A stretch of DNA of 64,000 nucleotides from NCBI GenBank assembly GCA_963804995.1, contig CAWDSK010000006.1:1856001-1920000 (forward strand). The letters are read 5' to 3'. The DNA is from an uncultured Acidobacteriota bacterium (GTDB lineage Bacteria; Acidobacteriota; Terriglobia; UBA7540). The notes below the pieces were generated by a model. It had not been told where the DNA came from, did not search any database, and saw nothing but the letters and a program-made list of their open reading frames with translations. Position 1 is the first letter of the stretch; every line of letters starts with the position of its first letter. The translations under genes were made by a program, and so were the position numbers. Of the stretch, positions 11,456 to 48,317 are shown in pieces.

Positions 11456-11496
11456 GTAGCGCAGAGGTGGGCGTAGTTTGTCCTCCTCTGCGCTAC
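11456..11496. repeat. GTAG REP-like hairpin between convergent genes
   Basis: gtagcgcagagg ... cctctgcgctac. Confidence 0.7.
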
Positions 11497-17616: not shown

Positions 17617-18069
17617 CTAGGCATGAGACCCACGCGGTGCCTTCGCCCCCATCCATGCAAAGAGGGGCTCAATATCGATTCCGAACGTATTCTTGACATC
17701 ATGTCTGAGGGTGAAATAGAAGCTGTCCAAAGCAGCCTGGATTTCGAATAGGTTGAGGGCACCGGAACTCTCCTCCTTTCGCCATGCGGACCCCACGACC
17801 CAGCCAGCTTCCGCGCGCTTTATCCAGACAAGACCCTTTTGTTCGGCTTCCATGCTCGTGTACATGAAGTCGTGTTGAGTAAACCGAACAGATGATGACC
17901 AGATCTGCGCATCAACCGCGAATTCAACCACAGGGAAATATGGCTGCGAGAAGATCTCGCGCCCGGAGACTTCTATGAGGAAATCCGCCTCTATCCCCAG
18001 ACAAATCTCCCAAGGTTCAGTGAGGCTCGGGCGCCCACGCGAGAGATTGCTATAACTAAAGGCTATCAT
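17617..18069 (-). CDS. Putative immunity protein of the Rhs toxin
   Basis: ATGA overlap with the Rhs stop codon; small acidic/aromatic protein. Confidence 0.65.
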   Translation of the reverse strand: MIAFSYSNLSRGRPSLTEPWEICLGIEADFLIEVSGREIFSQPYFPVVEFAVDAQIWSSSVRFTQHDFMYTSMEAEQKGLVWIKRAEAGWVVGSAWRKEESSGALNLFEIQAALDSFYFTLRHDVKNTFGIDIEPLFAWMGAKAPRGSHA

Positions 18070-19793
18070 TTCACTGGGTATGCTGTCCATATCTGCCCAT
18101 TGTTACCAACAACAACTTTGACGGCGGTCTCGCCCGCAGTTCCGATTTGCTTTCCTAGGTCGGTAACCACTACAAATGAGTTTGGCTTATTGTTGGGGAG
18201 AAAAGCTGCGTCCGGGGATGTGAGAGCTTGCCGAATGGCTTGCTGGATGTCAACGCCACTGGCAAACTTGGCGTAGCCCCCTGCAGCGCCGGGGAAATGC
18301 TTTGCACTGACAACAAAATTAGAAGCGTTGTCTGCGGCCTCGAACGCCGTGGCGGAGGCATTCTCAAGCGCGCTAGAACCAGGGCCAATCAGGTTGCGTC
18401 CTACATTCAATGCTGCCCCGAATACCAAGCCGAATGCAGCGTTTTTGAAATAAGCAGCCCCCATTTGTCCAGCCCCTGACAGGTTGCCGTTGACCATAAA
18501 ATTGCTAAAGCCCACGAACCACTGACCTGCGAAGTCCCAGAAGCCGACCTGCGTGTTGGGAACACTTGCGGTCACGGTGATCGAGGGCGTATTGTTTTGC
18601 TCAGGTGAAAATGCCTCCTCGCAGGTCTGGCCACCGCTATTATCGTCGAACCAATCCCCCTTGCTGCCCTGCACGCAGGCCAAGCCGTCAGGGTCGACAT
18701 TTGTCGTCGGATTATTCCGGACATATGCGTACCCATTCCAGGCCCGCGGGTCGCTCGGGTCGGCGCCGGCGTTGTCCGGGTCGGGGGTCATAAAGCGTCC
18801 GATGCTGGAGGCGTTGTACCGTGCTCCGAAGTAGCCGAGGCTGGTTTCGGCGTCACGTTCTTTGCCAGTGAATTTATAGTTGTTGCCGCTGCCGGAGGCG
18901 ACACAATTGTCCCAGCCAAACGGGTAGTAGTCGCAATCGTCCAGCACGTTCCCAGCCGAGTTGGTGACCACTCGTGAAGAGCCAAGCTGGTCAGCAAGGT
19001 AGTAATCTACATTCCCCGCCGCATCCCGCCGCGCTACGCGCTTGCCGCCAAAGAAAACATACTCGTCCGTAATGTTCCCGGAAGCGTCGCTTTCCGCCAG
19101 CACGTCGCCGTTCGCCCCGTACCAGTAGAGTTTGCCGTTGGATTTCTGGACGCGCTTGCCGTCGCCATCGTAGGTGTAAGTGTAAGCGCCCGCCAAGGCC
19201 GAAACTATTTGGCCCTCGGCGTTGTAAACGTAGCTGTGGGGATTGTTGCAAGTGCCGGGATCGAGCAGGTTGCCCGCCGCATCGTAGCAGTAGCCCACAA
19301 TCCGATTCTGGGCGTTGGCGGTCAGGCTGAAGCTCGGCGCGGCCCCCTGCGTCAAGTTGGTGTTAAGTAGATTGCCCCAGGGGTCGTAGCCAAACGCCTG
19401 ACCCCAGGCCGTCTGCCCCGTGGTCGCTTGCGTCCTGGCCAGCGTGATGCGGTTCAGGGCATCGTAGGCGAAAAACTGCGACCGAGTACTGTCCCGCCCA
19501 TTGAGAATGGCCATCACGTTACCATTATCCGCCGTCCCCAGGCCAAAGTCATAGTCAAGATCCAGCAGGTCCGTCCCCCCGGCCGAGGCGGCTTGAATCC
19601 TTGCCGGCTGCAAGCGGGAGTTGTAGGCTTGGCTCAGAACGACGTTGCCTCCTCCGAACGCCAGTCCCGTCAACGCCCCCTGGGGAGCATAGGTGGCGCT
19701 AGCCGCGTAGGTGGTGGCGCCGTCCGTGACGGACAGAGGAAGCTCCGCGCCTCCGATCTGATAGGTCATCACTCGGCCGCTGGGATAAGTCAG
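18066..19793 (-). CDS. 5'-truncated Rhs/YD-repeat protein with Rhs core and C-terminal toxin domain
   Basis: YD repeats, YKFTGKERDAET..YFGARY, NPTTNVDPDG cleavage motif, toxin-like tail ending GQIWTAYPVK; N-terminus missing at the intron boundary. Confidence 0.88.
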   Translation of the reverse strand: MTYPSGRVMTYQIGGAELPLSVTDGATTYAASATYAPQGALTGLAFGGGNVVLSQAYNSRLQPARIQAASAGGTDLLDLDYDFGLGTADNGNVMAILNGRDSTRSQFFAYDALNRITLARTQATTGQTAWGQAFGYDPWGNLLNTNLTQGAAPSFSLTANAQNRIVGYCYDAAGNLLDPGTCNNPHSYVYNAEGQIVSALAGAYTYTYDGDGKRVQKSNGKLYWYGANGDVLAESDASGNITDEYVFFGGKRVARRDAAGNVDYYLADQLGSSRVVTNSAGNVLDDCDYYPFGWDNCVASGSGNNYKFTGKERDAETSLGYFGARYNASSIGRFMTPDPDNAGADPSDPRAWNGYAYVRNNPTTNVDPDGLACVQGSKGDWFDDNSGGQTCEEAFSPEQNNTPSITVTASVPNTQVGFWDFAGQWFVGFSNFMVNGNLSGAGQMGAAYFKNAAFGLVFGAALNVGRNLIGPGSSALENASATAFEAADNASNFVVSAKHFPGAAGGYAKFASGVDIQQAIRQALTSPDAAFLPNNKPNSFVVVTDLGKQIGTAGETAVKVVVGNNGQIWTAYPVK

Positions 19794-20421
19794 ATCGGGA
19801 TAGGGGGAGCGGTTGCCCGCCCACCCCTCCCACACCACCGTACGTACGGAGCGCGTATACGGCGGTTCCGTGACTTAAGCCCGCGGGGGCCGGAGTTTCG
19901 ATACGCGTTTCGCCGATGGAGGCTTCGCCGCTCCCAAGGTCCTTTCGGGCTTCACCCTATCCGCCCCTGGCAAGCTCAGCCGAAGCTGATTGGCTGGCGC
20001 ATGGCCATCCATGAGAACCGCGCACTACTCTTCACGATCACGGTTCGGGCCTTCGTCCCGATAGGTCGGGACTAATCTGCCCTATGCTGACTTCTGCCTG
20101 GAGTCCAGAACACCTTACGATGTCCTCAGTCACGAAGCCGTGACACCAGGCAGATCTCCCGAGGTAAGTTCGACCGCCTTCCGTGCATCGCCGCCGAATC
20201 TACGTTTTGCGCTCTTGATGGATAGGGGCTTCGCGAAACCTGGCCCGCTCGCCCAACGCTCACGCCTTCTATCCGGTTTTTGTCCATCGGCTCGCACGTT
20301 TGTTCCACGCTTCCTTCAGACCCCGCCTCGCGACGACGCCCTTGCGCTTCGCTAACCCTTCACCTCCATCAGGTTGGGTAGGGGACTTTCACCCCCAAGC
20401 TGTCGAACATGCTCGGCACAC
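19794..20421 (-). mobile_element. Group II intron, class IIC-like, ORF-less (RT gene deleted)
   Basis: Minus strand starts GTGTGCCGAGCATG; DV GAACCGCCGTATACG...CGTACGTACGGTGGTGTGGGAGG; DVI ends CCCCCTATCCCGAT; 628 nt with no RT ORF. Confidence 0.9.
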
Positions 20422-20424
20422 CAA

Positions 20425-20942
20425 GTAGCGCAGAGTCTCCCGCACTCCGAGACTCTGCGGCTCGTCCTCAGTTCTCCCGCCCTCACCGGCACAACGTTAA
20501 ATCCCATGTTTATCAAACTAAGAGCCGCAGAGTGTGAAAGGGCCACACTCTGCGCTACCCCATCTTTCCCGCTTGTTTCCGTTTAGGCAAATTCATCCTC
20601 ACATGACCATTCGAGGGTAGCGCAGAGTCTCACGCTCTTCGAGACTCTGCGGCTCGTCCTCAGATGCATTATGATCGCCGATATGATGTTACTACGCATG
20701 TTTATCAATTCACGAACCGCAGAGTGTGAAAGGCACACACTCTGCGCTACCCCATCTTTCCCGCTTCTATCCGTCCAGGCAAATTCATTCCCAGGTGACC
20801 AATCGAGGGTAGCGCAGAGACTCGCGCTCTTTGAGACTCTGCGGCCCTTCCTCAGTTCTCCCGCCCTCACCGGCACAACGTTACATCCCATGTTTATCAA
20901 ACTAAGAGCCGCAGAGTGTGAAAGAACCACACTCTGCGCTAC
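20425..20942. repeat. Tandem array of three 192-bp REPIN/BIME-like units
   Basis: Units start at 20425, 20617, 20809 with gtagcgcagag..ctc..gagactctgcgg and carry the inverted ccgcagagtgtgaaag..cacactctgcgctacc; related copies near 17550-17610, 47960-48090 and 58660-58841. Confidence 0.9.
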
Positions 20943-21481
20943 CGGCTTACGACCTCCAGAGAAATCGGGCTACCACGTCACATGTCCTCACACTGTATTA
21001 CTATTACCCCGCGTGCTAATTAAACTAAGGACCGCACAGCAGAAACCCCAGCCGCCGCGATGCCTCCAGAACATCGATGATCGATGCGTATTCCGACTCG
21101 TTGAATCGCCGAAAGCGCCGGCGAAGGTTTACACTGAGAAAGAAGATCACGTCAGTCTGGAGGAGGCCATGGACGTTCGACACGCCCGCAGGTTACCACC
21201 ACGCCCCAAGGCCCACAAGCACCCACGTCAAGCGCCACAATTGCGGCGATAATCAACGGAGGTTTTCGCATCAAGGGAAAAGCCCACGGACAGAAAAGCG
21301 CTGTCCGTGGCAACCCGCTTAAGTGCGGGGTTGGTTCTTTGGCCGAATGGTTGGCGATGGCTTGGCGGTCGTGGTAAAGACGGTAATGGCGCTGACAGCT
21401 TGAAGCCTGCTCCCAGAGGCGGTAAAATCCCGCCACAAAAAGCCCATACGGCCCATACGGCCAGAACGGGAGGATGGTCAC

Positions 21482-47796: not shown

Positions 47797-48317
47797 AGCT
47801 CGTCACTGCTTTGACGCCCACCTTGTCGCGCCTGCGTCGCTTCTGATCCCGGCATGTGTATCTGGGGCAGTTCGACGAGAGGAGAATTGCGGATGAAGAG
47901 CCGCTGAGGAGCGCAAAAGACGCGCACCTCATCGCTACCCCAAACCCCACCTCCGCGGTACCCGGTTTATGGCCTCCAGGGGAACAGGATTAGCACCACA
48001 GGTGTCAAAGCCATGTGTTGATAAGAAAGTGCATGTTTATCATATTACGAACCGCAGAGTCTGAAAGGCACAGACTCTGATGCGCTACCCGCTACGGACA
48101 AAATGTTCTCTATGGGATATTGACGATAATCAGATTAAATGTATTGACAAGGGACTTGCGGAGAGGTAGGGTCTGCGCGTTAGCGGCGTAGTGTTTTTCC
48201 GAGAAAAATTACTCTGCGCTACGCCTCGAATGCGCCGCGACTCACGGCAATAACGGAACGGGCCCGCCGTACACTGTGACACACGCGCTTCAAATTCCCT
48301 TCTAGGAGGGCGATTCC

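Follow-up and report, generated by a model that had tools for sequence, protein, structure and literature searches.

The window, a stretch of 64,000 nucleotides from the genome of an uncultured Acidobacteriota bacterium (G000; 7.55 Mb, 9 contigs, 92% complete), carries a 628-nt ORF-less group IIC intron 7 nt behind the hairpin of a REP element. We consider it likely, at a probability of roughly 0.7, that this intron is a non-autonomous IIC element which follows the hairpin rule with a REP-tuned guide, was spread by a cognate reverse transcriptase (RT) acting in trans, and is now probably stranded.

Structure and class of the intron

The intron lies on the minus strand at 20421-19794, beginning with GTGTGCC (20421) and ending with CCCGAT (19794). 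A first-pass annotation of the same DNA had given the range 19794..20460, which is the intron plus the hairpin, the intron alone being 19794-20421. Rfam searches matched group-II-D1D4-3 at 118.3 bits and D1D4-1 at 50.3 bits, each above its gathering score. The annotation had reported a GTGTG 5' end, domain V (DV) and domain VI (DVI) within 628 nt. Of the two Rfam scans that it had proposed, the D1D4 scan was positive, while Intron_gpII (DV-DVI) gave 36 bits (E 5.4e-5) and did not reach its gathering score of 40. The whole intron folded with z = -2.7 and none of 20 shuffles was equally stable. It showed the hallmarks of group II, namely a GUGYG 5' end, an AY 3' end, a six-domain fold, and DV and DVI with a bulged A.

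Helices defined on the window copy were scored for pairing in 55 de-duplicated relatives out of 75 full-length ones. In DI, DII, DIII, DIV, DV and DVI most of them were 82-100% paired, compared with 9-75% for slid partners, and most showed compensatory changes, so the fold into domains I-VI that the annotation had predicted held; helix IA, set off-register, was uninformative (74% paired vs 64-95% for slid partners). A helix defined from a single member will tend to do better than slid controls, and compensatory counts are therefore stronger evidence than pairing percentages. Domain I (intron nt 6-264; 20158..20416, minus strand, as are all the domains), matched by D1D4-3, had a basal helix 98% paired with 16 compensatory cells. 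The three helices of domain II (20094..20153) were 95-98% paired with 21-68 compensatory cells, and domain III (20047..20082) was supported by D1D4-1 and by the pairing in the relatives. Domain IV (19868..20043), which has no ORF, had a basal helix 98% paired and contained a UUCG hairpin (19976..19989) that was 100% paired with 12 compensatory cells; this hairpin lies partly in the 24-nt pattern used below to search for relatives, and its conservation therefore partly reflects the selection of matches. The Rfam alignment placed the short domain V at 19832..19868, and domain VI, placed by Rfam and by folding at 19796..19831, had a bulged A at 19801, 8 nt from the 3' end, as the putative branch point.

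The available part of PMC1702495 lists as group IIC features a CGC triad, an AGGAA bulge, a short EBS1, EBS3, and a hairpin instead of IBS2. We found the CGC triad (DV reads GAAC-CGC-CG at 19868 in the Rfam alignment), a short DV, an AGGAA bulge in DI (intron nt 107-111, read from the sequence), a short EBS1, EBS3 and an upstream stem-loop. The size was likewise abbreviated (628 nt in total, about 450 without DIV), and the absence of EBS2 was read off the compact DI and the Rfam model. EBS1-IBS1 was 4-5 bp in the clade of REP-targeting introns described below, compared with 3-4 bp in the group IIC definition. The 5' exon lacked the U-tract of an intrinsic terminator, the target hairpin lying outside the two terminator-like sites found, and of a class C RT/maturase ORF only a stub was present. 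Since the same part of PMC1702495 admits 'similar stem-loop motifs' besides terminators as IIC targets, the missing U-tract marks a variant and membership in IIC is kept. The intron is an intact-looking member of group IIC by its RNA, and a variant in target and autonomy.

Four RNA runs searched for splicing at 85% likeness yielded only short contigs of relatives, in which neither joined exons nor an end-to-start joint appeared. Of the 24 RNA runs listed, none contained more than 16% of the intron's words. No sigma-70-like promoter was found within 19600-21300.

REP targets and guide pairing

On the minus strand the 5' exon reads CGCAGAGTCTC, a 9-nt loop and GAGACTCTGCG (20459-20429, an 11-bp stem), followed by the 7-nt tail CTACTTG (20428-20422) and then by the intron, which confirmed the hairpin and tail seen in the first pass. 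The tail consists of the REP tail CTAC (GTAG on the plus strand, 20425-20428) and TTG, with IBS1 at 20426-20422. As DNA the hairpin had z = -3.6, and none of 200 shuffles was equally stable. It is the last of six GTAG-REP palindromes of alternating orientation (20425-20942). Sequence related to this array occurred at 56 loci of the genome, among them both flanks of a RAYT gene, which scored 112.6 bits with NF047646 (REP-associated tyrosine transposase; cut-off 80), and about 230 nt of the array matched the RAYT gene flank at 84-86% identity. In the available part of PMC3733652, GTAG-REPs are defined as multicopy palindromes with a terminal GTAG that lie beside a RAYT gene. The target is a true REP, being a palindrome that ends in GTAG, is multicopy and flanks a RAYT gene. 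Genome-wide, CGC-Y-A-S motifs ended a hairpin of at least 9 bp in 319 of 26,292 cases, compared with 13 of 12,710 sampled control motifs, and of 400 random sites 7 satisfied the hairpin rule. Elsewhere in the window, at 11456-11496 and at 48212, there are more REP-type motifs of the array's family, without an intron copy.

Three full copies of the intron were found in the genome, together with a 36-nt stub of its 5' end and two remnants of DV-VI. The comparison of 5' exons for which the first-pass annotation had called showed a REP hairpin upstream in all four cases: each 5' end stood 7-8 nt past a hairpin whose tail was CTAC, CCAC or CCAG, and the other flanking sequence was unrelated. REP tails account for 396 of the 2754 strong hairpin ends of the genome, and if any hairpin were used, four out of four would have p of about 4e-4. 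Between the other two full copies identity was 97%, and they shared 90% with the window copy; the latter was slightly closer (91%) to a copy in G026. As judged from these identities, the genome holds two old intron sub-lineages and has had no recent burst. The G-rich strand carried 3 of the 4 IIC 5' ends, too few to use.

A scan of GTDB genomes with a 24-nt pattern from the DIV stub gave at least 82 matches at no fewer than 80 loci, nearly all in Acidobacteriota by record title, with at least 12 matches in a single assembly. With 9 unreadable exons and 1 duplicate set aside, the 72 5' exons among the matches listed comprised 47 U-tailed terminators, 7 other hairpins, 4 REPs, 3 that immediately followed another intron, and 11 without a class, of which some are mis-mapped ends. 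REP targeting fell mainly within one clade, which had support 100/100 under midpoint rooting and included one long-branch row. Of the REP-clade introns of the genus whose 5' exon was readable, 13 out of 14 had a REP tail. In metagenomes 48 loci matched the REP-clade pattern; 17 had no readable 5' exon, 4 were duplicates, and the 27 kept showed a REP hairpin with tail (20), another hairpin (2), a tail without hairpin (1) or neither (4). The genome, genus and metagenome sets overlap and their counts are not to be summed. RT-encoding sister introns with readable exons lay behind REPs in 10 of 10 cases. The proposal of the first-pass annotation that GTAG-REP hairpins serve as the homing signal thus stood for one clade (4/4, 13/14 and 20/27). 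It did not stand for the wider family, where 47 of the 72 exons listed were terminators, nor for GTAG alone, as REP-clade tails also included GTGG- and CTGG-type REPs. REP is a preferred hairpin under the ordinary IIC rule with a retuned guide, not a new signal.

Several side observations were made on the wider family. The DV loop, which is the 5-nt CGCUC typical of the REP clade in the window copy (19854-19850, minus strand), was NGCUC or GCUC in most REP-clade stub introns and GACC in most terminator-type members. Five RT-encoding IIC introns (L026, L048-L051) sat immediately after the DVI hairpin that closes the 3' end of another group II intron, and their 5-nt EBS1 matched perfectly. Among the matches listed, 12 of 72 stub introns, in other genomes, lay nested within a second IIC intron, just after its first base, behind a terminator (L078, L084, L087, L091, L095, L116, L119, L123, L126, L128, L131 and L133); the hosts were RT-type by their DIV start in 9 cases (three translated), ORF-less in 2 and unreadable in 1.

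We first placed EBS1 and EBS3 by analogy with the O.i.I1 structure. In the window copy EBS1 is CAGGU (20238..20242, minus strand), which pairs with IBS1 ACTTG through 4 Watson-Crick pairs and 1 G-T, and EBS3 is G (20200, minus strand), whose partner is the C that opens the 3' exon (19793). In the three full copies the EBS1/IBS1 pairs are CAGGU/ACTTG, CGGGU/ACCCG and CCGGU/GCCGG. In a set of 39 introns (49 rows minus 10 partial or duplicate ones; the L014 row is from the unpublished G045, and no conclusion depends on that row by itself) the first three EBS1-IBS1 positions were Watson-Crick in 103 of 117 cases, compared with a shuffle mean of 33 and a maximum of 58; for unique pairs the count was 64/78 vs 23. 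EBS3 gave 15 Watson-Crick pairs and 1 G-T out of 20. The REP clade alone gave 71/81 for EBS1-IBS1 (shuffle mean 63, maximum 70). At EBS1 position 2 all four bases occurred in this clade, each with its complement in at least one copy; the metagenome pattern fixed C-N-GGT and left only this position free. In the stub family, among the matches listed, EBS1 paired with its target in 175 of 207 cases (shuffle mean 92), and EBS3 was mostly A, before T (50 rows). Some REP-clade copies, e.g., L012, L015 and L164, paired poorly. On the evidence of this covariation, the REP tail is the pairing partner of EBS1, whose sequence shifts along with the target from one copy to the next.

To place these guides on the genome, we counted the hairpin ends that each fits. 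Among REP hairpin ends, 146 of 849 fitted the guide CGGGU/G, compared with 28 of 625 among U-tailed ends and 271 of 5532 among all other ends; for the terminator-type guide CAAUG/A the counts were 1 of 849, 12 of 625 and 19 of 5532, respectively. The REP-clade guide enriched REP ends about 3.5-fold. The guide and the hairpin rule alone predict about a third REP sites (146/445), below what was observed, so that hairpin shape or selection must supply the remainder.

The 3' exon is not a further REP: it opens, in frame, partway through an RHS/YD-repeat gene fragment truncated at its N-terminus (18066..19793, minus strand; PF05593, TIGR03696). RHS homologues extend upstream without REP or intron, and in 5 of 9 homologues aligned from the first residue a serine codon (4 TCG, 1 TCA) stood just before the insertion point. 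One possibility is that the last three bases of the 5' exon belong to the RHS gene as one of its codons, and that the gene had already been cut short by the REP array; the junction might also stem from recombination involving two copies of the intron, or from a deletion. A search for an uninterrupted allele of the site found none: RHS homologues were present in 26 of 120 other genomes, with REP or intron at the point in none of the 11 inspected. DV-DVI reads from a GTG in frame into the RHS fragment as a 590-aa ORF (19838-18066, minus strand), and the intron might supply the start for it. A DUF7878 gene (17617-18090), a candidate immunity gene, follows the fragment.

The domain IV stub and proposed spread in trans

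Intron nt 392-533 (19889..20030, minus strand) aligned with the leader and the first ~45 RT codons of two RT-encoding sisters. The local DNA alignments scored 56 and 60, compared with a mean of 26 and maxima of 38 and 48 in 200 shuffles each. The remnant is frameshifted: it reads MDGHAPANQLRLSLPGADR and then, in another frame, GEARKDLGSGEASIGETRIETPA, the counterpart in L185 being MSDRRPKNQMKLAFSGERKGEARKPIGEGTESLTAKRPAESPA. A peptide profile of RT N-termini gave weak colinear matches in two frames (E 0.026 and 0.029), and a DNA profile of RT N-termini gave no match in the sense strand of the stub. The alignment to the 5' end of the sisters' DIV bore out the first-pass reading that DIV holds just a stub of the RT ORF. 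The start codon was present in only 25 of 55 members while DIV was 83% conserved, which indicates that the stub was kept as RNA. By analogy with DIVa we regard it as the putative RT-binding arm.

The stub was 81-97% identical in the pairs compared. Since it occurs at no fewer than 80 loci, in many genomes, at different sites and with compensatory pairing, the ORF-less form itself appears to have moved. A tree of DI-DIII rejected the stub carriers as one clade (p-AU 8e-6; 11 rows vs 17), in a test whose group was defined by the stub, yet after the first tree had been seen. The window copy was 87-90% identical to L017, L018 and L043 in DIV, compared with 75-76% in DV-VI. These comparisons support an exchange of the stub, or of the domains around it, between lineages.

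The first-pass annotation had also asked for an RT-encoding parent. Close sisters were found elsewhere: three full-length RT-encoding introns were 94-96% identical in DI and 91-93% in DV-VI, and their RT had a YADD motif and 459 aa (450 in one). One sister RT scored 423.7 bits with TIGR04416; the sisters are assigned to class C on the basis of their RNA. In this assembly we found no cognate class C RT among 49 Pfam RT matches or by tblastn, the best identity being 37-38%, and the only tblastn stretch of at least 50% covered 21 residues (E 6.9). Likewise, no class C RT above 40% was found in G026 (98% complete, 7 contigs) or G020 (93%). G013 had an interrupted class C RT only, and G001 and G022 had partial ones. 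The stub had no match in G002, G021, G028 or G003, which all carry non-stub REP-clade copies. The two remnants in the present genome end like RT-type IIC introns, the DV-VI of one being 96% identical to the window copy, and they indicate a former helper. The lack of a cognate RT in three carriers, and of the stub in those four genomes, speaks against present-day borrowing and fits an earlier spread followed by helper loss, or an unassembled repeat. We infer that the RT was borrowed in trans.

The proposed mechanism is as follows. The REP-clade IIC RT of a closely related intron would bind the ORF-less RNA in trans through the DIV stub, and the RNA would reverse-splice into single-stranded DNA behind the hairpin and be reverse-transcribed there, as with other endonuclease-less IIC introns. 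The observed insertions stand 7-8 nt behind REP hairpins, at sites where EBS1 (C-N-GGU) matches the REP tail and EBS3 (G) the base after it. The REP preference would come from the hairpin rule and a guide able to pair with the conserved REP tail, and selection in favour of harmless intergenic sites has probably sharpened it. The copies here look like survivors of an earlier spread, whose cognate helper is either lost or unassembled.

Other introns of this genome also lie at REP hairpins. A family of 39 copies of an RT-encoding intron (about 1913 nt; e.g., L001 at C2:581151 and C6:1709837), presumably of class E, is inserted at the REP hairpin foot, between the stem and a CGCTAC/CGCCAG/CGCCA tail, in all 37 readable 5' flanks, and 33 of the 39 copies are on the G-rich strand. 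At C3:1331349-1331493 an IIC 3' remnant lies antisense to a short 5' piece of the type of this family, beside a REP tail. A third lineage has two ORF-less copies (DV-VI at C3:45923-46001 and C3:98983-99061), preceded at their 5' ends by hairpin-like sequence that terminates in CGCTAG, and two damaged RT-bearing relatives (C6:2113751 and C9:153945), one of which reads YADN. Three intron lineages thus appear to use REP-like hairpins in one genome. At C6:294142-296742 two copies of another RT-encoding intron family stand head to tail, one of them starting at the last base of the other.

Several alternatives to a trans-mobilised, REP-tuned element were weighed. It is unlikely that there is no real preference and that any hairpin is taken, REPs being abundant and intergenic and insertions elsewhere being purged. 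REP tails do outnumber U-tailed ends among the strong hairpins of this genome by 396 to 78, and the shortfall of the guide rule, which predicts REPs at only about a third of sites, means that selection probably contributes. However, terminator-type members of the same genus and phylum mostly avoid REP tails (4 of the 72 exons listed) and have other guides, and the REP-clade guide is complementary to the REP tail and enriches for it. It is most improbable that the copies are dead relics, each inserted at full length and deprived of its ORF later without trans movement. This would fit the lack of a helper RT, the identity of only 90-97% between the genome copies, and L030 (in G086), where an independent in-frame deletion has a similar end point, but one and the same frameshifted stub stands at dozens of unrelated sites with guides fitting each.

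The absence of a cognate RT in three well-assembled carriers would also be explained if a non-cognate RT moved the intron, e.g., that of the 39-copy family, an abundant RT that acts at REP hairpins, 7-8 nt upstream of the position used by the IIC intron. We judge this very unlikely: that RT is about 31% identical to the class C RT, blastn showed no RNA similarity between the two introns, the stub comes from a class C leader, and there was no recent IIC burst although the RT of the 39-copy family is evidently active. Intron-encoded proteins (IEPs) are generally intron-specific. A bolder version, to which we give only slight credence, would make the DIV stub a portable adaptor swapped between IIC backbones with different guides, which founded a phylum-wide SINE-like family without a cognate helper and was moved here by the non-cognate RT of the 39-copy family; if true, REP hairpins would be a shared niche where three intron lineages and RAYT meet. 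Of this version, the swapping is the part that the DI-DIII tree supports. Finally, the RAYT transposase might have moved REP units with the intron as cargo, as the same repeats flank RAYT in the genome. This is extremely improbable, since copies lie behind different REP families with unrelated flanks, homology ends exactly at the intron ends, and EBS1 tracks each site.

Comparison with known systems

The element as we read it, mobilised in trans by a cognate RT, represents one ORF-less IIC lineage at no fewer than 80 loci by a single exact-pattern scan, persisting in well-assembled genomes in which no cognate RT was detected. The available part of a 2015 review (PMC4424553) describes ORF-less bacterial group II introns as rare and nearly always accompanied by a related IEP, and gives three target types (homing sites, terminators and attC). 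Class C insertion after terminators is confirmed in the available part of PMC8919778, where 'palindrom' is absent. In Pseudomonas putida, 2 of 9 group II introns are tabulated as REP-associated, with no comment found in the available text (PMC1525189). Our literature search, which covered mostly open-access papers, found no description of IIC introns in REPs. EBS1 has been judged too short to matter much for IIC target choice (PMC4748821, available part). The family described here, directed to terminators or to REP tails by a guide of 3-5 nt and one base, amounts to a natural retargeting experiment that bears on the role of EBS1. The conserved ~140-nt stub points to a minimal putative RT-binding arm and may aid compact retargetable IIC integration tools.

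Among the systems known to us from the available parts of the cited papers, the class C introns behind terminators, B.h.I1 and O.i.I1, share the same small ribozyme, CGC triad, AGGAA bulge, short EBS1 and EBS3 (PMC1702495). In contrast to them, the present intron has no RT ORF, the REP-clade target is RAYT-associated and without a U-tract, and the REP clade has an EBS1 of C-N-GGU that often forms 5 bp, an EBS3 of G and a DV loop of 5 nt. Group IIC-attC introns are likewise a IIC lineage specialised on a non-terminator stem-loop of another mobile system (PMC4424553, PMC3001079), but here the target is a REP and not an integron attC, and the element is non-autonomous. ORF-less introns are mobilised in trans by another intron's RT in Thermosynechococcus elongatus (PMC8643678); those are IIB1 introns with the helper in the same genome, whereas here one IIC stub lineage occurs in many species and no helper was found in three carriers of the stub intron. 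C.te.I1 of Clostridium tetani, ORF-less in a genome without a related IEP and the sole known exception as of 2015 (PMC4424553), is a splicing element in a host gene region, while the present intron is multi-copy and intergenic and apparently was mobile. ISPpu9, ISPpu10, ISPa11 and ISPsy8 also land on REPs (PMC1525189). However, these are DNA transposons that recognise the REP through protein and break it, whereas the intron described here would find its site by RNA-DNA pairing behind a hairpin that stays intact.
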